NCBI GenBank assembly: GCA_951406725.2
Contig: OX597822.1
Span: 10,292,001 to 10,356,000 of the forward strand
Direction: 5' to 3'
Origin: Octopus vulgaris
Taxonomy: Eukaryota
DNA length: 64,000 nucleotides
Positions 3,138-63,150 of this stretch are shown here, one piece after another. The number at the start of each line of letters is the position of its first letter. The first letter of the stretch is position 1. Both the position numbers and the translations under genes were made by a program. Below the pieces are notes generated by a model, which saw nothing but the letters and a program-made list of their open reading frames with translations, made no database searches and was not told where the DNA came from.

Positions 3138-3355
3138 TGGCGAGTTGGCAGAAACGTTAGCACGCCGGGCGGAATGCGTAGCCGCATTTCGTCTGCCGTT
3201 ACGTTGTGAGTTCACATTCCGCCGAGGATGACTTTGCCTTTCATCCTTTCGGGGTCGATAAATTAAGTACCAGTTACGCACTGGAGTCTATGTAATTGGC
3301 TTAATCCCTTTGTCTGTCCCCTCTATGTTTAGCCCCCTATGGGCAATAAAGAAAT
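3138..3355 (+). mobile_element. tRNA-derived SINE family B; neighbouring copies at about 2000-2190, 3399-3585 (+) and 3620-4220 (-)
   Basis: GGCGAGTTGGCAGAAACGTTAGCACGCCGGGC head, B-box-like GAGTTCA.ATTCC, central GACTTTGCCTTTCATCCTTTCGGGGTCGATAAATTAAGTACCAG (resembles the MetaSINE central domain from recollection, unchecked). Confidence 0.85.
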
Positions 3356-4558
3356 ATATCTATGGAGCCAATATTTAAAACCAATATTATTATCGTTAAG
3401 GCGGCGAGGTGGCGGATCGTTATCACGCCCGACAAACTGCTTAGCGGTATTTCGTCAATATTCTGAGTTCATCATTGCCTTTCCTCCTTCGGTGTCGATA
3501 AAATAAATACTAGTTAAACACTAGGGTCGATATAATCGACTTAACCCTTTACTAAAATTGCTGACCTTGTGTCAAAATTTGAAATTGATATTTTAATTAC
3601 CATCACAGCAATAACAGAATTGATTTCAGATTTTCTCACAAGGACAGCAATTTTGAGGAACAGGTTAAGTCGATTACATCGTCCCCAGTATTCTACTGAA
3701 ACTTATTTTATCGACACTGAAAGTCGACTTTGATGGAATTTGTGCTCACAACTTGAAGACGGAAGGAATACTGCTAAGTAGAAAGGATAGTGTTCTAGTA
3801 GTGGTGGTTTCTAACTTGAGCACAGGACCAATAGTTTTGGGGTAGGATGTAGTACTTGATATCATCGATCTCTGGACTTGGCTTGTACTCTGTTTTAGCG
3901 ACCTCAGAGGGATGAAAGGCGAAGTTAATTGCATTTGGATCTCAACTTAGAACGTAGAGATACGCAATATATTTTGTACGACGCAAAACATTTTGTACGA
4001 CGCACTTAATGGTTCTGTACAGAACGTCAGCTTTAATTTCTATTAAAAAACTTTGTGGGTGGGAAATATTTAATTCCATCGACCCCAGGGCTTGACTGAT
4101 TTTCATTTCATTTATTGCGAAATGATGAAAGGCGAAGTAGACATGTGATTGAAAATGGAATGCCAGAAGAAACGTCGCTGAACATTTTGCCCGGTCTGCT
4201 AACGATTCCGCCAGCTTTATCACCTTTCTGTTTTAAATTATAAGGAAACTAGCTAGAGAGGAAGCATGGAAAATCCATGTTGTATGTGAATATCTACTTG
4301 CCCTTCTGCCGCTGTATGTATGTGTTTATTCTCACAATACTGAAAAGAATTTAAAATTAAATTTTAAGAAAGAACAAAATGAATAATCAGTGTCCCAGCA
4401 GGGCCAGAGATTTTGATCTGAAGCACGTAAAAGATGTTTAACAACTACAACTATTTTCTAAATCAGGTCATTTTCCATTAATTTAAACATCTATCGATGT
4501 ATCTTTTGATGCATAAACTTATAAAACTTCATGAAATTTCATTGTTAAATATTTTGAG

Positions 4559-5084: not shown

Positions 5085-5637
5085 CCATTCGAATTATTAC
5101 CTCTCTTGGCCTAACACATGGTGAAAATCGACAGACTACAGCAATAAAGAAAATGATATAATAATATGTATATTATATTAGTTAAACAACACATGGTAAA
5201 TAAGAAAAAAATGATATAAACATAAATATTGCAAAACATTAATTCGGGTCAATTAAGAATATCAGCACATTTCTTTTTCTGTACAATTGTTGGGTGAAAA
5301 ACGGAAGAAGGAACTATCCAGTATGTTGCTAGCTTTATTTGTGACTACTTTATTATAAGCTAATCTGTAGCACTGATTGAGGAAGGACGACAGGCGTTCT
5401 CAGAATAGCTCAAACAAGCCAGGAAATGGACTACCAGATGCTTCCCTTTGTATCTGTATATCAGTAGCATGTAAAGAATGCGTTTACATTCATATTTAAC
5501 TCACGATGAGGTTTCATGATATTGAAATTTATATTAATAAAATTAACATAATTATGATACTTATGTAATGACATAATAATGATAATAACAACAACAATAA
5601 CAACAACAACAATAATAATAATTATTATAATAATAAC

Positions 5638-5704
<67 letters not shown>

Positions 5705-5706
<2 letters not shown>

Positions 5707-6180
5707 TGTTTTGTCTTTGTATAAAAGATGGGCTACAGAAAATATCCTGCTCAATACCTCAGATTTGCTTGTCAGTTGTCTGACCTTAACCAGTTGAGCA
5801 CGTCCCTTAGTGGCTGACGATATGTGCATCTCTGATCAATAGCAGAAGTAGTGGGGGAGCAGCATAGCCGTGTGTTGAAAGGAATTCTTTGGGGTTTGGA
5901 TAATTCACCTTTGGAAACATGGGTGGTTCGTTCAACATCCTTAAACAATCCTAATCCAGGGACCTTTTGAGCGGGATGGGTTATTCGACCTGAAGAAAAC
6001 TCCGATCCCCACCTGCAAGGTCATGCGCTGTTTGATCTTGATATGAGATCACCATGTCGCACACATATGGCTGTGATGCATGTGCCTGGTGTACCCTTAT
6101 CAGACGGGTGGTCATGATGGGTATATTGGGCTTCGTATATTTTACCCCAGTGTCACTTTGATGTCATGTACTGTTCTCTC
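5705..6180 (+). mobile_element. ~480 bp (AAT)n-embedded interspersed repeat, copy 1
   Basis: Nearly colinear with 8865-9379 and 9412-9897; all three end ..CTC directly before (AAT)n. Confidence 0.85.
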
Positions 6181-6227
<47 letters not shown>

Positions 6228-6244
6228 TAATAATAATAATAACA

Positions 6245-6520: not shown

Positions 6521-8688
6521 TCCTGCCTGGATGACAAATGGACAAACGCTGCTATGCCTCAAGGATCCTTTGAAAGGGAACTTAGCATCAGAATTTCGTT
6601 CTATAACCTGTTTACCACTTTATGTGGAAGCTTATGACCGGTGTATTGGTCGGAGGGTTAAAGAATCATCTGGAAAGTAACAATCTACTTCCAGAAGAAC
6701 AGAAAGGATGCAGGAAAATAAGTAGGGCAACAAAAGATCACTTATTAGTTGATAAAATAATCACTAGAAATTGTAGACAAAGATTTGACGGGACTGAATG
6801 AAGCAGGGCTAGATTACAAAAACTCATACGACATGGGATCACACAGTTAGATAAGTAAAACAATGAGTATGTTCGGAATAGCAAAAAGCATGGAGAAAAT
6901 GCTGTATGAAAGTGTGAAACATTGGAATATGGAATTGATCGGAGGAAAGCAAAATCTCGTGAAAGTGGAGAGTCAGACGTGGAATATTCCAAGGTAATAG
7001 CTTATCTCCGCTACTATTTGTATTATTGGTGACACTCTATGATACTATGATATTAAAAAAGTTTAAAATGCTTACGATTTTTGAAAAGGAATAAGTCAGA
7101 TAAATCATCTCCTTTTCGTGAATGCGAAAAATGTGAAACAGCTTGAAAAATTTGAAAAATGTGAAAAATGTGAAACAGCTTGAAAAATGTGAAACAGCTT
7201 GAAAGTCTTGTACATACTTCCAGTATTTTCTCAATAGACGTAGGTATGGAATTTGGAATAGAAAAGTGCGCTATATTGAAAAGGAAACGAGAAAGATTTG
7301 AAGAAACCCAGGGAACTGAAATGCCAAATAGGCAAATAATGAGAGCGATGGAGAAAGGACAATGGTATAAGTAAGTACTTAGGAACACTGGAAGCAGAGG
7401 AAATAAGAAAAGAAAGAATGGAACAAATGACCAGTAGGGAGTAGACAAGGAGAGTAAAAAAGTTATTGCAGACAATGTTGAATTCAAAAGATCTTATTAA
7501 AGCAATGAATTGAAAAGCAGTGCCCGTAATCAGATATGGAGTTAAAATTATGGACTGGACCAAAAACGATATAAAGAAATTTGATAGAAAAACAAGGAAG
7601 TTGCTGACGATGTATGAAGCCCATCATCCGAAAGCTGGTATCAACCACTTGTACTTGAGGAGAGATCAGGGTGGTTTCTGATAGCAGCAGCATAATGTGT
7701 ACAGAGGGAAAGAAAAAGCTTAGTAGAGTATTTACAGAGCAGCACACAAAAAACTACTAAAGAGAGTAAAGAAAAGGTGATGAAGGGCATAATAGGAGAA
7801 ACGGACAAGAATGAAATAGAAAGAGAGCACGTCAGACAAATTGAAGAAAAACCTATGCATAGCCAATTTTGGAGAGCCACTGAGGGCCTATGTGGAAAAA
7901 TTCTGGGCTTGGTTAAAAAAACGGGCAGTTAAAAATAAAAAAGGGCCTAATTGTAGCAGCCTAAGATCAAGCAATAAAAAACAAAATTTAGAAAAAATAT
8001 ATCTGGAGAGAATGTTTCAGAAAAATGTAGAGCCTGTGGAACTTGGAATGAGACTGTGGCACACATTGTGGATGAATGCCCCAAGCTGTCACAGGAGGAA
8101 TATAAGAAATGGAGGCACGACCAGGTTGTAAAAGTGTTAAACTGGAAATTATGCCACAAATAGGGATTTAAAACTGGAAACACAGTATAATTACCGAGTC
8201 AGAAGAGTACTGGAGTAGGAAAAATGCAAGGTTTTGTGGGACTTTCCTCTTCATCCGAACAAGAAAATAATAAACCGGACATAACAATTATAGATAAGGA
8301 AAAGCGAAGTCACTTAGCGATTGACCCATCATGCCCGTTTGATTCGAGGATCGTAAAAAAAAGGAGACGAAAAAAACAAAAAATATGTAATCTCTTAAAA
8401 TTTGAAATGGGGAGAATTTGGACCATGAGAACAGTAAAGGTCGGGCCTATAATTGGTGCACGAGGAACAGTAAGCAAAGATATAGACAAATGGCTGAAAT
8501 AGACTGGAATAGAATGTCCTGTTGAGCTCCTTCAAAAAGTTTGTCTCTTAGGGATTGCAAGGATTATCAGGAGGGCTCTAAGCACTCCAAGGACAATTGA
8601 AAACTTGTGGACACCTAATGTTACAAGTAGTAATCTGCTACCCACATTAATTCTACCAGGAATAAGACCAAACCTGAGCCAACACAAA
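6521..8688 (+). mobile_element. 5'-truncated, decayed R4/Dong-clade non-LTR retrotransposon (RT, CCHC and restriction-like endonuclease) in (AAT)n
   Basis: Frameshifted relics [101 protein letters not shown]; (AAT)n on both sides. Confidence 0.9.
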
Positions 8689-8735
8689 ATAATGATAATA
8701 ATAACAGCAACCACAATAGTAATAATAATAATAAT

Positions 8736-8788
<53 letters not shown>

Positions 8789-8864
8789 TGATAATAATAA
8801 TAATAATAATGCTGCTCTCTCATTCAATGATAATAATAATGATAATGATAATAATAATAATAAT

Positions 8865-9379
8865 ACCAGGCAATGACTCTCATGGCTTCTAATCTCAATG
8901 GATTGGAAATGTTATAACGTATATATTTTTCTTGGTGTAAAAGATAGACTACAACAAATATTCTGCTCAAAACCACAAATTTGCTTGTCAGTTGCTTGAC
9001 AGTTGAGCATGTCCTTTTGTGGCTGACGATTTGTGCATTTCTGATTAAGGACAGGAGTATTGGAGGAATATCATAGTCATGTGTTGAGAGGAATTATTTG
9101 GGTTTTGAATAATTCACCCCTGGAAAATGATTGTTTCATTCATTTACCTTAAACAAACCTTGTGGGATTTTTTGAACGTGATGGATTACTCGGTATGAAG
9201 AAAATTCTAACTGCGGGCCAGTTGCAAGCTCATGCACTGTTTGATATGAGTTCACCATGTCACACGCAAGTTTGTGATGCATGTGGCTTGGTGTAACATT
9301 ATCAGATGGGTAGTCATGATGGTTATATTGGGCTTCGTATATCTGTGTCAGTATGAGAGAGTGCACTGCCCTCTCACTC
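8865..9379 (+). mobile_element. (AAT)n-embedded repeat, copy 2 (diverged, longer 5' end)
   Basis: AAATATTCTGCTCAA..CCACA.ATTTGCTTGTCAGTTG...TATCAGATGGGTAGTCATGATGG...CTCTCACTC-AAT. Confidence 0.8.
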
Positions 9380-9411
<32 letters not shown>

Positions 9412-9414
<3 letters not shown>

Positions 9415-9897
9415 ATTGTTTTGTCTTGGTATAAAAGATGGGCTACAGCAAATATTCTGCTCAATACCACAGATTTGCTTGTCAGTTGTTTGACCTTAAC
9501 CAGTTGAGCATGTCCTTTATTGGCTGACGATATGTGCATCTCTGATCACGAGCAGAAGTAGTGGGGGAGCATCATAGCCATGTGTTGAGAGGGATTCTTT
9601 GGGGTTTGAATAATTCATCTCTGGAAACATGGGTGGTTCTTTCAACATCCTTAAACAACCCTTATTTAGGGACCTTTTGAGCGGAATGGGTTACTTGACC
9701 AGAAGAAAATTCTAACTAGGCCCCACCTGCAAGGTCATGTGCTGTTTATCTTGATATGAGATCACCATGTCATGCACATATGGTTGTGATGCATGTGCCT
9801 AGTGTACCCTTATCAGACGGGTAGTCATGATGGGTATATTGGGCTTCGTATATTTTACCCCAGTGTCACTTTGATGGCATGCACTGCTCTCTCACTC
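9412..9897 (+). mobile_element. (AAT)n-embedded repeat, copy 3
   Basis: High similarity to copy 1; separated from copy 2 only by an (AAT)n run. Confidence 0.85.
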
Positions 9898-9939
<42 letters not shown>

Positions 9940-9999
9940 TAGCAACAACAATAAAGGTGAATAACAGTAACAAGGAATTAATAATTAACGACGATGACG

Positions 10000-11929: not shown

Positions 11930-12454
11930 TCAGACAGTGCTACCGTTGCCAACAGTTGCGTACTGACAGGCCGATAGGGTGGGTTGTCTAGTTGGCACAG
12001 TCGGGTAACCGAAAGGACTGTGCTGTTTGGCTTTTAACCTGAGAGAAGCAATGCTTGTTGAACACTGGTCTCTGTTGTAGATGTAAGGTGGTGCTGGAGG
12101 TGCGTAGGGGCAGGCTGTATTCGGCGAGGTTACGTTACCCATTGAAGCAACATTTGGCACTCCGCCTCCCACCATACTGCTGCTGATGCTACTGGCGGGC
12201 GATGAGAAACACATCGGTTGAGTCGTCACTACGGAAGGGAGATGGTTGACAGAGTTCAGTCCCCATGAGAAGCCCTTCGGTCCAAGCGGACTCGGTACTT
12301 TGGTAGCCCAGTTGTTGTAGGAATATCCTGTGTAAAGACTGTCGTCGAATGGTGGCTGCATCAAACCACTAAATTGCGGTCCGAAACCATTCTTAAAGGT
12401 TTCCATGTTCCGTTCACGTTTCCGCCATTTTGCGCGTCGATTCTTGAACCACAC
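11930..12454 (-). CDS. Pitx: Pitx (pituitary homeobox) terminal coding exon: homeodomain helix 3 plus C-terminal OAR domain
   Basis: Translates [16 protein letters not shown] (K50 paired-class helix 3), then Pitx-type [37 protein letters not shown] and OAR motif [12 protein letters not shown], ending LSACQY..TV-TGA. The ORF track's start M is really Val (GTG) just after a splice acceptor. Confidence 0.97.
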
Positions 12455-17823: not shown

Positions 17824-18294
17824 GTTGCACTTGGTTCTTCAAGCAGTAGGAAGAACTGTTAGCAGTGGTTGATATTGATTCTGAACTTACTGAAGTGCCT
17901 AGAGTTTCATAGCAAGGCACTTCAGTATTTCGATAAATGCATCAGAACAGAAATATAATTTCTGTCTCACTCCACTGTTAATGCCCCCTAACAAATAATT
18001 ATACACACACACACACACCAATGTACAACAGTGATCAGATGGACCAAATTTATGTGGGTATTTGTGATTCGATTGCTCCATGATCCTTACATCCATTTTT
18101 TCCACTTTTGATTCCATCCCGAAAACATTATTTTATCCGAAACATCAATACTTTACGTTCTTATGATCATCAGAGACATACTTGTAACCGAGACAGTTTG
18201 GTATGTTGTTGTTGTTAACATTTTCTCAGGAGAAGGTATTTCCTCTCTCTCTCTCTCTGCACACACGTACTATACATTTCATTTATACGACACA

Positions 18295-18460
18295 TATATA
18301 CGACGAGCTCCTTTCAGTTTCCGTCTACCAAATCCACTCACAAGGTTTTGGTCACGAGGTTCTAGTAGAAGACACTTAGCCAAGTTTCCACGCAGTGGGA
18401 CTGAACCCGAACCCACGTGGTTGCGAATCAAGCTTCTTACCACACAGCCACGCCTGTGCC
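18295..18460 (-). mobile_element. SINE family A, 5' half
   Basis: CTTTCAGTTTCCGTCTACCAAATCCACTCACAAGG...CCACGCAGTGGGACTGAACCCG...CTTACCACACAGCCAC. Confidence 0.8.
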
Positions 18461-18466
18461 TCTGTG

Positions 18467-18561
<95 letters not shown>

Positions 18562-24218: not shown

Positions 24219-24641
24219 TGTGCATATAAGAGGGATAACCTGTAAGTGGACATCCATTATGCTACAAGAAGATCCGCTATAGCCTTACCACTAAGAAAGA
24301 AATGTTCTCAAGAAAATTTATCAAATGCCAGGACGTAAGCGAGCAAGACAAACAAAAAGATACAAAATATAGATTAATCACAAACAAGATTTCGTTGTTA
24401 TCGCTTACGTAATCATTTACATAATTATCCGCAACTCATCAGTGTTATCGTCTTTGCAACTATATAAATATATATATAGATGTTTTGACTCTTATTTCTA
24501 GCAAAGCTCGAGCCAATTTGCATCCTTAGTCACTTTAGAAATGATTGTACTTGCGCTTTTGGTTGTAAATTGCGAATAGCTACTTTAATAACGATATATA
24601 TACATACATACAGACATACATATACATATACATACACACAC

Positions 24642-24692
<51 letters not shown>

Positions 24693-24697
<5 letters not shown>

Positions 24698-25198
24698 ATT
24701 CCCTAAATGAGATATAGACAGTGACTGCTCCATAATATAAGGGATATTAGCCAACTGAATATGGCTAGGGACAGGGCAGGGTGGTGGGGGTGTCACTGTT
24801 GCATTTAGCCCCAGGCGAACATCAACGTCACCAGATAGGCCGACGCCATCACGTGCAAGAGTCACTGTCTATATCTCATTTAGAGAATTATTATTGCTGT
24901 CGAACAGATTTTCGAAATCAGTAAATGTATTTACTTGAAAATCTTTATATATATCTTGCACGGTTGGTCGTTCATCGAGAAGCGATGCCTACCACACGTT
25001 GATAATAGGCAATACACCTTGAAACCTAGGTCCGTGTGTGGTATCCGCTTCATGGTGAATGATCTCCCTTTGCAAGATAGAGGACGCCGTGATGGCGTCG
25101 GCCTATCTGGTGACGTTGATGTTCGCCTGGGGCTAAATGCAACAGTGACACCCCCACCACCCTGCCCTGTCCCTAGCCATATTCAGTTGGCTAATATC

Positions 25199-25204
<6 letters not shown>
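24693..25204. repeat. Interleaved inverted-repeat element in (TA)n; related partial copy at 41148-41248
   Basis: About 24693-24726 is inverted to about 24859-24893; about 24736-24853 is a near-perfect inverse of about 25088-25204. Confidence 0.9.
24991..25042 (+). ncRNA. Minimal type-I hammerhead ribozyme-like motif (U3-A8 core)
   Basis: CACACG-UUGAUAA-U AGG caauaca CCU U-GAA-ACCUAGGU-C-CGUGUG: 6-bp stem I, 3-bp stem II, palindromic stem III, GUC triplet. Confidence 0.7.
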
Positions 25205-25254
<50 letters not shown>

Positions 25255-25453
25255 GATCGTTAGCTCCTACACGCATTTTTTTCTCTCTTTGTTTCTCTCC
25301 TTGTTTCCTTTCTGTGTATCTTTCTGTTGAAGAGCGTAGGCTCGAAACGTAAAAGGCTTGTTTTATTTCTATTCCTGAGCGCCATACTAATACAATTGTT
25401 TGTTTGTATTCCACCTGCCTTCGTCTTTTGTTTATTTTCGTAAACCTTCCCGT

Positions 25454-29867: not shown

Positions 29868-30335
29868 TGGCAAGCTGGCAGAAACGTTAGCACGCCGGGC
29901 AAAATGCGTAGCCGTATTTCGTCTGCCGCTACGTTCTGAGTTCAAATTCCGCCGAGGTCGACTTTGCCTTTCATCCTTTCGGGGTCTATAAATTAAGTAT
30001 CAGTTACGTACTGGTGTCGATGTAATCGACTTAATCCCTTTGTCTGTTCTTGTTTGTCCCTTCTGTGTCCCCTTGTGGGCAATAAAGAAATAGGAAACAC
30101 TATAGCCACAGTTACGGACATGAAATTAACATTCACTGAGAAGCGAGCAAAATACGGCAACAGGTTTAAAATAATGGGGGAGGGGGCTAATCGATTACAT
30201 CGACCCCAGCACTTGACTGATACCTATTTTATCGGTTCTGCCACGACGGCATTTGAACTTAGAACATGAAGACAGAGAAAATGCAGCTAATCATTTTGTC
30301 CGGCATGTTAACGATTATCTCGGCTCGCAACCTTA
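29868..30335. mobile_element. Two SINE family B copies (29868-30092 +, about 30170-30335 -); others near 15930, 34150-34350, 45455-45620, 46110-46325, 56850-57050
   Basis: Full head, body and tail in the first copy; diverged reverse copy next to it. Confidence 0.8.
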
Positions 30336-40525: not shown

Positions 40526-40689
40526 TATATATATATATGTATATATATACACGTATATATATGTATACATATATGTGTGTGTATGTATATGAATATATGT
40601 ATATACACGCATATACACGCATATATACAAGAATATATATATATATATTAGATATATGTATACATTTATTATATACTTTCTTTTTCTTT

Positions 40690-40907
40690 TTTATTTGTTA
40701 GAGTTATTCGACTGTGGCCATGCTAGAGCACCGTCTTCAGGAGAACAAATTGAGTCCACGAGTTATTCTTTGTAAGCCTAGTACTTATTTTATCGGTCAC
40801 TTTTGCCGAATCGCTAAGTTACACGGACGTAAACACACCAACTTCAATTGTCAAATGATGGTGGGGATGACAGAAACACAGACACACGAACATATATACA
40901 TACGTAT

Positions 40908-40943
<36 letters not shown>

Positions 40944-41105
40944 GACAGGCTTCCTTCGGTTTCCTTCCACCAAATCCACTTACAAGATTTCGGTCGGCTC
41001 GAGATTATGTTAGAAGACACTTGCCCTAAGGCACTACGCAGTGGTCCTGAGCCCAGAACCATGAGGTTGCGATGCAAGCTCCTTATCACACAATCATACC
41101 TGCGC
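40690..41105 (-). mobile_element. SINE family A; further partial copies near 2595-2765, 20555-20760, 36800-36910, 39650-39900 and 52230-52500
   Basis: Shared motifs AAGCCTAGTACTTATT, TTTTGCCGAA.CGCTAAGTTAC, AGAAGACACTTGCCC.AGG. Confidence 0.75.
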
Positions 41106-41325
41106 TTATATACATATATGTATATATATATATATATTTATATAACATAAGGGACTAAAGCCATCTGAATATGGCTAGGGACAGGGCAGGGTGGTGGGGG
41201 TATCGAGCAGTTACTGTCTATATCCTTTTAAGAATTATTATTGCTATATTTATATATATATATATATATTATATATAATATAACATAATTATCATATATA
41301 TATACATTCACATACACACACACAC

Positions 41326-55396: not shown

Positions 55397-55456
<60 letters not shown>

Positions 55457-55459
<3 letters not shown>

Positions 55460-55870
55460 CATAGGAGTGGCTGCGTGGTAAGTAGCTTGCTTACGAACTA
55501 CATGGTTCCGGGTACAGCCCTACTGCGTGGCACCTTGGGCAAGTGTCTTCTACTATAGCCTCGGGCCGACCAAAGCCTTGTGGGTAGATTTGGTAAACGG
55601 AAACTGAAAGAAGCCCGTCGTATGTATGTATCTATATATATATATCTGTGTGTGTGTATATGTTTGTGTGTCTGTGTTTGTCCCCCCAACATCGCTTGAC
55701 AACCGATGGTGGTGGGTTTACGTCCCCGTAACTTAGCGGTTCGGCAAAAGAGACCGATGGAATAAGTACTAGGCATCCAAAGAATAAGTCCTGGGGTCGG
55801 TCTGTTTGACTAAAGGTGGTGCTTCAGCATGGCCACAGTCAAATGACTGAAACGAAAGAGTAAAAGAGTA
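55457..55870 (+). mobile_element. SINE family A, near full length
   Basis: Colinear and highly similar to 452-845 from GGAGTGGCTGCGTGGTAAG to CAAATGACTGAAAC..AAAAGAG. Confidence 0.85.
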
Positions 55871-56168
55871 TATATATTGCTTATAATACACCATACGGAT
55901 TCATGACACACCAGACACCTAGAATATAACAAACAACGTATGATCAACACAACGTGTGCTTTAGTCCAGCCCCTTGGCGCTAAATATTCGCTGGGGTAGA
56001 TTTCTCTGTGTGCACAAGCTGAATATTTTACTGAATATTTAATCGAATATAGATGGTAACACACAGGTTAATCCAGCCGTACCTTGGGCATATCATTTCA
56101 GTACCCGCTTCTCTCTAGATACTTATTGTTATTATGCCCTGCGTGTGCGTGCGTGCGCGCGCGCGCGC

Positions 56169-58599: not shown

Positions 58600-60895
58600 T
58601 TCGGGAATGTTGTAGATGGCAGAATTGGTAGACCAGCAGTCAATATGGCTTGCAGTATTTCGTTGCTTAAATTAAGCGAGAAATTAAGTACCAGTTGCGT
58701 ACTGGGGTCGATCTAATTGACTGGCGCCCTCCTCAAAAATGTTGGGCCTTGTACCTAGATTAGAAAAGAGTATTTCGTTGCTTAAAATTTCTGTTCCGAG
58801 TTCAATTCCCACTAAGGTTAATTTTCCATGTTATCCTTCCTGGGTCGATAAAATAAAGTACTAGTCAAGTACTATGGTTTCTATATACAACCCTTTCCTT
58901 TCACCAAATGATAAATTCGCAAGAGCGATGGATAAATTTCTCAAATATTTAGTTAAGCTCTTATGATTTATATCCGTTTCGTCTTCTATCATTTCCAAGT
59001 TGATACAGAATGTACGAGCGAGTGAGCAGATTCTAGTCGAATACTGATGTCGTTTATACCGCTTTTGGTCCGAATATTACATTATATTGTTTTGTATTAC
59101 ATTACACCACAATATAATCGACTTTTCGTCTGCTCTTCTCAAAATTTATGATCTTATCACAGTTTTATAAACCATTATTACATTTTATTATTACATAGAA
59201 CTGCGAAGACCACGAGCTGGCAGAATCATTAGCACGCCCCCCACCAAACATTCTTAGCAGTATTTTACCTGTCTTGATGTTCTGATTTCAAATTTCGCCG
59301 AGGCAGACTTTGTTGTTAAGGATGATATATTAGCAACCCTAATTGAGCAATAGGGTCGATGTAATCGACATGCCCCCTACCCCCAAAATATCATCCCTTG
59401 TGCCTGTTTTAGACAAAGTTATCACTTAAAACCGTTAAGCAGCAGGCTGGAGGAATCTAAGGGCGCCAGACAAAATGCTTAACAACATTTCACCCGTCTT
59501 TACGTTCGGAACTCGAATTTCGCCGTGGTCGAATTTGCCTTTGATAAAATAAGTACGCCGGAGTAGATATAATCGACTATACTTGTCCTCACAAATATCA
59601 GGCCTTGTGCCCATAGAAGAAAGAATAATCTTTTCTACTCTAGGTACAAGGCCCGAAATTTTGGGGTAGGGGTGCCAGTCTATTAGATCGACACCAGTAC
59701 GCAATTTATCAACCTCGAAAGGATGAAAGGCAAAGTCGACCTCGGCGGAATTTGAACTCAGAACGTAAAGACAGATGAAATACCTTTTTCTTTACTACCC
59801 ACAAGGGGCTAAACACAGAGGACAAACAAGGACAGAGAAACGGATTAAGTCGATTATATCGACCCCACTGCATAACTGGTATTTGTTTAATCGACCCCGA
59901 AAGGATGAAGGGCAAAGTCAACCTCGGCGGAATTTGAACTCAGAACTTAGCAGCAGACGAAATACCTATTTCTTTACTACCCACAAGGGGCTAAACACAG
60001 AGGGGACAAACAAGGACAGACACACAGATTAAGTTGATTACATGGACTCCAGTGCGTAACTGGTACTTAATTTATCGACCCCGAAAGGATGAAAGGCAAA
60101 GTCGACCTCGGCAGAATTTGAATTCAGAACGTAACAGCGGACGAAATACGGCTACGCATTTCGCCCGGCGTGCTAACGTTTCTGCCAGCTCGCCGCCTTA
60201 GTAGAAGGAATAAAAGCATAGAACTGAAAGGTTCCCTGGTGTCGGGGGAATGCTAGGTACCATTTCTCCCGGCTTGTTACATGCGGTATTCAAATCCCCT
60301 TGGGACAACATTACATTTAATATTACATTTCATCCTTTCGGGGCTTATAATCAAATAGCAGATGAGCACTGGGATCGATATAATCGACTAGCCATTCTAC
60401 TCTTTAGAAACAAACCTCAAGCCCTATATTCGAAAGAGTTGCATGGAACGGCAAATGCTTTACGCTATTTAGTCCGTTTTTTTTTTTACGGTGTGATTTC
60501 AAATCCTGCCAAAGTCAACTTTATCCATTATCGCTACCCTTGGATGAGTTACCTGCTCTTGAATGTGGCTCAGTATTCCATAGATGTACCCGTGGTAAAA
60601 TTCTCAGATAGAATCAGAGTGTACCTTTCACACGCTATCACAAATGCTATCAACCGATGGGTTATAGGTTCACAAAGTGAGAGTCAACATGGAGCTCTAG
60701 GAAATGACATTGGCCTAAGATGCGATGCAGTGAAATCGAAACAGCACCTATGTTTGTATGTATTTGTGTGTTTGGTATCTACCTAGCTACCTAGCTATGT
60801 CTCTGACTATCGGTCTGCCTGTCTGTCTGCGAATCTATCTATCTACATAAACATATAAATGTGTATGTATATATGTATATATATGTATGTATGTC

Positions 60896-61376: not shown

Positions 61377-63150
61377 GCGTCGCTTTTAATGTTGCTGTTG
61401 TTTTTGTTAATATGGTAGCTATTAAACGTGAGGTGATTGATGTTATATTAATGCTGCTACTAACGATAAAACTTATCATGATCGTCTGTATTAGTGGAAG
61501 TTTTATGGTTACTAAGTTAATACGAAGCGTTGTTACAGGCGAGAGGATAACTATTTTTCCTTGCTCACCCGATTTTATATCAACGCAAACACAAATTTAA
61601 TCTCCTATCTGTAATTTACCCCTCACATGATGTCCCTACGCCGAGCTGGTAGAATCGTTAACGAACCGGGCGAAATGCATAGCGGTATTTCGTCCGTGTG
61701 AACGTTCTGAGTTCAAATTCCGCCGAGGTGGACTTTGCATTTTATCCTTTCGGGGTCGATACATTAAGTACCAGCGAAACACTGGGGTCGATGCAAAATT
61801 TCCGGCCTTGTGCTTTTAGTAGAAAAGATCATCATCATCATCATCATCGTCGTCGTCGTCATCATCATCGTCATCATCATCATTATTAGCAGCAGCAGCA
61901 GCATCACCTTCATCATCATCTTCATCATTATGTTTTATCATTATCACCTTCATGAGCATCATCATTATCATTATTATTAGTATTAATGTCATCAATAAGG
62001 CGGCGCGCTGGCAGAATCGTTAGCACGCGGGACGGAATGCTTAGCGGTATTTGGTCTGTCTTTACGTTCCGAGTTCAAATTCCGCTGAGGTCGACTTTAC
62101 CTTTCATCCTTTCAGGGTCGATAAATTAAGTACCAGTTACGCACTGGGGTCGATATAATCGACTTAATCCGTTTGTTTGTCCTTGTTTGTCCTCTTTGTG
62201 TTTAGCCCCTTGTGGGTAGTAAAGAAATAGGTATTTCGCCCGTTGCTATGTTCAGAATCAAAAATTCTGCCGAGGTCGACTTTGCCTTTCATCCTTTCAG
62301 GATCGATAAATTAAGTACTAGTTGCGTACTGAGGTCGATCTTATCGACTGGCCGCCCCCCTCACCAAAAATTTCGGTCCTCGTGCTTACAGTAGAAAAGA
62401 ATATTATCAATAAGGCGGCGAGCGGGCAGATTCGGTGGTACGATCTGAATTCAGATTCCGCCGAAGTCGACTTTATCTTTCATCCTTTCGTTGGTCGATA
62501 AAATAAGTAGCCGTTGAATAGTGGGATCGATGTAATCGACCTAACTTCTCACCCGAAATCGCTGTCCTTGTGCCAAAAATTAAAAGTGGTATCGTCATCG
62601 TCGTAGTCATCATGATCTGTCTCCTCCCATTTCTCTTCCTCCTTATCAACACCATTGTTATAGGATCGATAGAAACGTTAGAGCATCGGTCAAAATCCTT
62701 GGTGATGTTTGTTCTAGATTTTACGTTCTGAGTTCAAATTCCGCCGAGGTCGACTTTGCCTTTCATCCTTTCGGTGTCGATAAATTAAGTACCAGTTGCG
62801 TACTGTGGTCGATCTAACCGACTGGACACCCCCCAAAAAAATTTCGGGGCTTGTGCCTAGAGTAGAAAAGGATATTTGTCCTAGATGTTTATATTCTGAG
62901 TTCAAATCCTCCTTTGACCATCTCAATCTTTAAAATAAACTCCCAGTCAAGCACTGGAGCGAATTATCTAGTTACCTTCTCGATTCTAGCACTTCAGGAT
63001 TTCAAACTTAAGTCAGTAAAATACTCTTCTTTTATTTCTTGGTTCTTTTTATCCTGCTAATATACTGGAAATAAGAGGTTTAGACGCAGAACATTAAGAG
63101 AAGGAAGTATACCGCAAGGCATTTTTTCCGACGCTCTAACGGTTCGACCA
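58600..63150. mobile_element. Dense cluster of SINE family B copies in both orientations, including dimeric and trimeric forms
   Basis: GCCGAGGTCGACTTTGCCTTTCATCC / TCGATAAATTAAGTACCAG motifs recur roughly a dozen times, e.g. 59440-59625 (+), 59628-60200 (-), 61640-61830 (+), 61997-62400 (+), 62410-62585 (+), 62670-62875 (+). Confidence 0.85.

Follow-up and report, generated by a model that had tools for sequence, protein, structure and literature searches.

An inverted-repeat element in Octopus vulgaris contains a short stretch that can be drawn as a hammerhead ribozyme, which raises the question of whether this motif is a genuine ribozyme and, if so, what kind of element carries it. The window analyzed here is the whole stretch of 64,000 nucleotides in which the element lies. 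Our answer is that the motif quite probably forms part of a multicopy, protein-free unit of 355 bp, a non-LTR retrozyme, whose RNA is predicted to cleave itself mainly as a dimer and which would be inserted into (TA)n tracts by enzymes of Penelope-like elements (PLEs). The coordinates of the features are presented in Table 1.

Table 1. Features of the hammerhead-bearing insertion and related features of the window. A dot marks a feature without strand assignment.
Feature	Position	Strand	Description
Type I hammerhead motif	24993..25038	+	Stem I, core, stem II, GAAA, palindromic helix III, GUC
Stem I	24993-24998/25033-25038	+	6 Watson-Crick pairs
Catalytic core, positions 3-9	24999..25005	+	U3 U4 G5 A6 U7 A8 A9; U3-A8 replaces C3-G8
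Stem II	25006..25020	+	Base U25006.U25020, 3 Watson-Crick pairs, 7-nt loop
Stem II Watson-Crick strands	25007-25009/25017-25019	+	
GAAA	25021-25024	+	
Helix III	25024..25031	+	8-nt palindrome; monomer form, 2 bp and tetraloop
C17 of GUC triplet	25032	+	Predicted cleavage point directly 3' of C17
Extended stem I rod	24952..25079	+	Rod of 41 pairs below the junction; internal loop (3 nt by 1 nt) adjoining the 6-bp stem
Main copy, nearly one 355-nt unit	24860..25206	+	Segment A, middle, hammerhead rod, segment B, then (TA)n
Inverted 5'-truncated second arm	24735..24853	-	Identical to final 119 nt of main copy
Tail of inverted arm, 43 nt	24692..24734	-	Remainder of 11-nt link and second copy of segment A
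Filler at inversion junction, 6 nt	24854..24859	.	
(TA)n target, left side	24646..24691	.	
(TA)n target, right side	25207..25250	.	
Second insertion, shorter, diverged	41141..41245	.	Same family, outward arms in TA-rich repeats, hammerhead gone
Last coding exon of Pitx	11933..12454	-	Residues 1-147 outside window

All the hammerhead elements that the first-pass annotation had claimed for 24991..25042 were located on the + strand at the positions given, namely the CACACG/CGUGUG stem I, the UUGAUAA core with its U3-A8 pair, the AGG/CCU stem II with U.U at its base, and the perfect 8-nt palindrome followed by the GUC triplet. The motif also has a 3-by-1 internal loop and a loop 2 of 7 nt. The motif follows the type I consensus (Y3 U4 G5 A6 N7 R8 A9, G12 A13 A14 A15.1, U16.1 H17, with a 3-8 pair). 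Positions 10.1-11.1 are U.U, so the standard pair is absent there; this is a known tolerated mismatch, and U3-A8 is a natural active covariant (PMC3088659). Both strands of the window were scanned with a type I descriptor that demanded a Watson-Crick 3-8 pair, and the motif with its core at 24999 was the single match. When the window was shuffled 200 times with dinucleotides preserved in 1-kb blocks, a comparison whose figures are somewhat flattering because the descriptor was composed after the motif was known, loose matches averaged 0.165 per window, matches with a stem I of at least 6 bp and a stem II of at least 3 bp averaged 0.005, and none (n = 200) also had a palindrome of at least 8 nt. 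The earlier judgment that so many constraints are unlikely to coincide by chance agrees with these figures, 0.005 matches being expected per window against one observed. The descriptor detected no second hammerhead on the minus strand in the 64 kb, and a relaxed core pattern gave two minus-strand matches. Comparison with the Rfam hammerhead models, which the first-pass annotation had proposed, yielded no hammerhead in the whole window at the gathering score and none in 24500-25400 or 24950-25085 even at E <= 10; the matches obtained were low scoring and lay nearly all on (TA)n tracts.

The 52-nt stretch by itself folds unremarkably (z = -1.54), and its minimum-energy fold is not a hammerhead. 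Stem I can indeed be extended past a bulge, as had been proposed, and it continues as a rod (about 40 bp) to about 24952/25079; owing to this rod, the segment 24960-25090 folds beyond chance (z = -4.99, equalled in stability by 0 of 200 shuffles). In the monomer, three helices around the core are possible, with pair probabilities of 0.83-0.98 for the 6 bp of stem I and of about 0 for stem III (2 bp) and for the 3 bp and U.U of stem II, neither of which is favoured. As a monomer, the hammerhead is 6.2 kcal/mol less stable than the minimum-energy fold, which pairs 25006-25009 with 25025-25028 instead. In a dimer, the helix III palindrome would form an 8-bp self-duplex of -11.4 kcal/mol. For the full rod, the dimeric hammerhead is the cofold minimum (-119.6 kcal/mol, versus -116.6 for two monomer minima), whereas in a 60-nt construct the cofold minimum (-37.4) lies 2.6 kcal below it (-34.8); it is important to mention that energy models leave out tertiary contacts. 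The full-rod energies thus favour the dimeric over the monomeric hammerhead, in line with the tandem-dimer format suggested earlier, and the folding models predict that the hammerhead cuts its own RNA mainly when two copies pair. The locus holds a single hammerhead unit, and this lone monomer at 24860-25206 probably cleaves poorly.

The anatomy of the element was then compared with its earlier description as two inverted arms of about 117 bp within 24693-25204. The inversion stands, and the length has to be corrected to 119 bp: the arms 24735-24853 and 25088-25206 are 100% complementary. Since the left arm has 43 additional nt, the arms are asymmetric rather than symmetric terminal repeats; they face outward, with their 5' ends linked by 6 nt and their 3' ends offset by 43 nt. 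The copy of segment A in the tail has one mismatch in 35 nt to 24860-24894. Segment B precedes the link and segment A, which in turn continues to B, so that the unit closes on itself after 355 nt. Its GC content is 0.445, and its longest ATG ORF comprises 75 codons. Folded as a circle, the hammerhead strand reaches z = -5.39, a stability that none of 100 shuffles attained, and the opposite strand reaches -2.5.

A second insertion of the same family was found elsewhere in the window. At 41141-41245, with ends that merge into TA and can be placed only to within a few bases, the identity is 86-90%, the truncation points differ from those of the main insertion, the arms differ in length and content, and the 3' ends are offset by about 44 nt, nearly the same as in the main insertion (43 nt). 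The inversion junctions of the two insertions (24860 and 41205-41209) are both no more than 4 nt away from where segment A starts, a position that may correspond to a preferred 5' end of the RNA or to a stop of reverse transcription. Additionally, the junction filler 24854-24859 and its neighbours match the outer helix of the rod (24955-24963 and 25072-25078) over 7-9 nt, a match that might reflect a template jump over the hairpin base but may also be due to chance.

The analysis was extended to public sequencing runs, of which 20 of the 24 listed (10 studies, 4 coded organisms) hold the stretch or part of it. All of these data are contigs, which cannot show RNA ends, and none is recorded as RNA. 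Contigs from four runs representing three coded organisms were aligned to 24820-25203 at 80% likeness, giving 873 matching contigs in X1, 615 in X2, 190 in X8 and 51 in X11 (the RNA status of X11 is a guess). The head-to-tail joint from 25203 to 24860, with 11 letters between, was observed in X2 (4 contigs), X8 (1) and X11 (2), and these letters are those of the link in the left arm of the window. One X11 joint starts from 25202; the two have 45 and 39 letters on the shorter side, the longer reaching only a few letters beyond the tails seen in the window, and tail-bearing ends could explain such short-sided joints. In the four runs no array of complete units was seen, and no contig spans two hammerheads or the whole stretch. 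The inversion junction 24854-24859 is bridged by no listed contig, a gap that proves nothing. No match to exact short patterns was obtained in metagenome, prokaryote genome or viral contigs.

Summed contig depth is not copy number and is used here for shares and shape only. By share, both arms of the window carry G25147, where nearly all the depth of the family has A (925,480 of 925,517 in X1), indicating that the arms were copied from one source. By shape, X1 depth is roughly a hundredfold greater at the unit ends than at 24963-24975, which is consistent with numerous truncated remnants of the kind seen at 41 kb and also with sister families of less than 80% likeness in the middle. A separate rise of 2- to 7-fold was observed at about 25105-25106, and one contig in each of X2, X8 and X11 has unrelated sequence leading into segment B; this 3' module may be common to another family, possibly an autonomous partner.

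The differences between the contigs and the window were read by hand against the table of pairs (40 of the 45 rows listed, 25 of them in the rod; equal depth, 812.8, in X11 was taken as one contig). Among these rows, pairing was retained in six of the seven two-sided pair changes (24952/25079, 24956/25075, 24969/25061, 24986/25043, core pair 3-8 and 25027/25028) and lost in one (24974/25056). The core pair changes from U-A to C-G, and 25027 and 25028 change together with the palindrome kept, in 22 and 19 contigs of X1, 7 and 6 of X2, 1 and 1 of X8, and 1 and 1 of X11. One-sided changes at paired sites keep the pair in three of seven cases and break it in four among the rows listed, and indels near these sites may shift the register. 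A change at 25052, present in all the covering depth of X1, X2 and X8, mends a mismatch of the window copy; two further rod changes fall at unpaired sites, and a 1-nt deletion in the stem II loop, at 25013, recurs in each of the four runs. The 40 of 45 rows contain no change at G5, A6, A9, G12-A15.1, U16.1, C17, stem II or the 6-bp stem I, and two loose contig ends in X11 have a change in the 3' strand of stem I, the pairing partner not being visible. A sister family with C3, C4 (U4C) and G8 (24999, 25000 and 25004) makes up most of the core depth in X1 (50,240 of 56,832) and X11 (812.8 of 926) and little of it in X2 and X8; in X11 it is represented by a single contig of 285 nt, aligned with 34 substitutions and 9 gaps. 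Although U4C reduces activity in vitro, it is able to sustain a viroid in vivo (PMC3088659); this form speaks against a uniformly active family. The first-pass annotation had made its claim depend on conservation of core bases among copies: most of the core is kept, U3-A8 alternates with C3-G8, and the palindrome is retained. The covariation analysis that it proposed likewise favours the hammerhead, with the U4C sister family as the exception. On the evidence of these sequences, the reading of the motif as a type I hammerhead under structural constraint is supported.

The unit was compared with known retrozymes, taking as the criterion a unit of about 170-400 bp with GC < 50%, no ORF and one type I hammerhead. 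Metazoan non-LTR retrozymes have 170-400 nt, less than 50% GC and a self-paired RNA, with units of 350-390 bp in mussel, 330 or 350 bp in axolotl and 220-245 bp in coral (PMC7229834). The octopus unit resembles them in being multicopy, in these properties (355 nt, GC 0.445, one type I hammerhead, highly self-paired predicted RNA) and in its head-to-tail junction. It differs in its U3-A8 core and in its copies, which are dispersed, inverted and truncated in (TA)n, whereas the metazoan retrozymes form arrays with target-site duplications; moreover, circular RNAs are described for the latter, whereas the octopus unit is known from contigs. A close parallel by description is the axolotl HHR_Amex2, which likewise has a 2-bp helix III with a tetraloop, U.U at the base of helix II and a unit of about 350 bp, and which cleaves weakly as a monomer (22% in 1 h) and better as a dimer; U3-A8 is not reported for it (PMC7229834). 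The main text of that study mentions neither octopus nor cephalopods. As a ribozyme the octopus motif is ordinary: retrozymes are a known class, and U3-A8, the U.U base of stem II and the palindromic helix III are all published variants.

The insertions point to PLEs. An inverted 5'-truncated copy, a tail and a (TA)n target are PLE hallmarks (PMC8557442; PMC8969392), and because they recur at 41141-41245, so that both insertions in the window bear this footprint with the tail at one end, we infer a PLE-type insertion. As in PLE insertions, there is 5' truncation with an adjacent inverted truncated copy; the octopus insertion differs in having no coding capacity and in its tail of 43-44 nt, against the 30-40 bp quoted for PLEs (PMC8557442). 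PLEs make up 6.83% of the O. vulgaris genome, with 31 recently active families (PMC13282606), Penelope is among the expanded repeats of coleoids (PMC8967140), and PLEs have been named as likely mobilizers of retrozymes (PMC7761336). PLE hammerheads with U3-A8 and a palindromic helix III cleave weakly and as dimers, and about 1,300 hits with U3-A8 covariation are reported in Schistosoma (PMC4209133). The octopus motif shares with them the U3-A8 covariation, the palindrome (15.2-16.2 and loop 3), the predicted action as a dimer and the occurrence as solo copies. The PLE minimal motifs, in contrast, combine a short helix I with a larger helix II and have G10.1-C11.1 and an additional base following A9 (PMC4209133), whereas the octopus motif has a 6-bp helix I within a long rod, U10.1.U11.1 and no adjoining RT ORF. 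No ORF with RT and GIY-YIG domains adjoins the repeat at 24860-25206, and among the 150 longest of 225 filtered ORFs of the window no RT or GIY-YIG Pfam match was found, the OAR domain of Pitx alone being above the cut-off.

This proximity to PLEs allows the unit to be read instead as the tandem terminal region (pseudo-LTR) of an autonomous PLE, the locus then being a heavily 5'-truncated PLE insertion. The insertion anatomy is entirely PLE-like, PLE termini, including those of truncated PLEs, show U3-A8 cores with a small palindromic helix III (PMC4209133), retrozymes in Xenopus are homologous to pseudo-LTRs (10.64898/2026.07.22.740005), and the depth step at about 25106 with foreign sequence in three of the four runs indicates a 3' module common to other families. 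We nevertheless regard this reading as unlikely, since segment A, the middle, the hammerhead, segment B and the link close into a 355-nt loop that leaves no space for an ORF, and since the helices (I, 6 bp; II, 4 positions; III, 2 bp and tetraloop) follow the canonical retrozyme plan, unlike the PLE minimal hammerheads, which lack helix III and whose helix II has 7-8 bp. A MITE or foldback DNA element, with the 119-bp arms as terminal inverted repeats and the hammerhead-like sequence as a passenger, would account for perfect inverted arms between TA repeats, but it is very improbable: the arms are asymmetric, one having the 43-nt tail, those of the second insertion differ in length and content at the same end offset, the inversion points differ between the two window copies, and contigs contain the direct head-to-tail joint. 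This candidate was rejected on these grounds.

Slightly less credible still is a locally co-opted ribozyme or hairpin with a regulatory role in Pitx. Pitx of Argonauta hians shares 99% identity with the ORF at 12454-11933 (minus strand), and no other protein listed exceeds 77%, which assigns the window to an octopod. As the exon begins after an AG acceptor and Pitx residues 1-147 are not in the window, the element must be upstream of the last Pitx exon, in what is likely a long final intron, and a transcript of either strand would carry the 119-bp perfect duplex; these two points speak for such a role. However, the hammerhead is antisense to Pitx, as the first-pass annotation had stated, so it cannot cut the Pitx pre-mRNA in cis, a candidate function that was rejected for this reason; moreover, the identical arms point to a young insertion, and the locus is one of very many copies. 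The antisense position looks incidental. A chance motif or a fold-back assembly artefact, to which the missing Rfam match and the non-hammerhead minimum-energy fold might point, is the least credible reading, the former discarded largely because of the compensatory changes in related contigs besides the 0.005 matches expected per window, and the latter because a fold-back could not create the link letters of the left arm, which are missing from the main copy and present in independent contigs.

Some further features of the window may be recorded. No upstream Pitx coding exon was seen in 12455-64000 (> 51 kb), which implies a very long last intron or an assembly break. A transcript of 24735-25206 from either strand, including the Pitx pre-mRNA, would form the perfect 119-bp duplex and is a possible substrate of A-to-I editing, a type of RNA editing that occurs in cephalopods. 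A short ORF at 8191-8499 (+), which has no Pfam match, resembles the restriction-like endonuclease end of a non-LTR retrotransposon; near it, at 5548-6239 and 8722-9954, lies a repeat of about 500-700 bp with several diverged copies. Two SINE-sized repeat families have many copies in the window, one for example at 455-845, 18281-18511, 40670-41144 and 55407-55874, and the other at 3139-3356, 29869-30094, 59624-60200 and 61639-62876.

Returning to the retrozyme reading, the inverted arms are best explained by the insertion event. Together they require a template running from one segment A to the next, i.e. more than one unit with the hammerhead intact, and we read them, from their sequence, as two primings on one RNA, akin to the twin priming of L1. 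The following course, in which multimer cleavage, circle ligation and retrotransposition in trans are carried over to the octopus unit from the published retrozyme model (PMC7229834; PMC7761336), can be proposed. Tandem source copies would be transcribed as multimers. Base pairing of two hammerheads at the 8-nt palindrome would give a stable helix III and lead to cleavage after C17, so that 355-nt monomers would be set free, which a host ligase may circularize. A PLE reverse transcriptase with its GIY-YIG endonuclease would nick a (TA)n tract, and priming at two AT-rich points separated by about 44 nt, with more than one unit as template, would leave the main copy and the inverted truncated arm with its tail.

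In the literature searched, which was mostly open literature and did not extend to Repbase or Dfam, no cephalopod retrozyme or hammerhead is described. A 2017 study by Lunse on PLE-associated hammerheads and the supplement to PMC7229834 may, however, already include octopus motifs. In the accessible text and supplement of the 2026 octopus repeat annotation (PMC13282606), the abundant repeat is not mentioned as ribozyme-bearing. A wider reading, which we hold tentatively and with slightly less than even confidence, is that this is the first described cephalopod retrozyme, that a PLE primes twice about 44 nt apart on an RNA of more than one unit, through an uncleaved hammerhead, and that the core forms U3-A8, C3-G8 and C3-C4-G8 (U4C) make up a natural experiment in which the palindromic helix III is kept.

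The octopus unit adds a further member to a class of mobile RNAs that is already known, and no new mechanism is involved. The anatomy of its insertions bears on the question of which element mobilizes animal retrozymes. According to a 2020 review, animal retrozymes carry no motif that reveals their mobilizing partner (PMC7761336). A preprint derives the retrozymes of vertebrates from PLE termini (one of nine predicted dimers cleaved in vitro) and builds its case for PLEs on distribution and homology, its scope being limited to vertebrates (10.64898/2026.07.22.740005). The PLE-footprint reading of the octopus locus rests on two insertions; these pair PLE-type ends with a retrozyme-type unit and so provide a lead on the mobilizer question. 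In addition, a high-copy natural U4C hammerhead is a notable candidate for assay. If the reading is true, the octopus insertions would be direct structural evidence for the mobilization of animal retrozymes by PLEs, which has so far been deduced from co-occurrence and homology.
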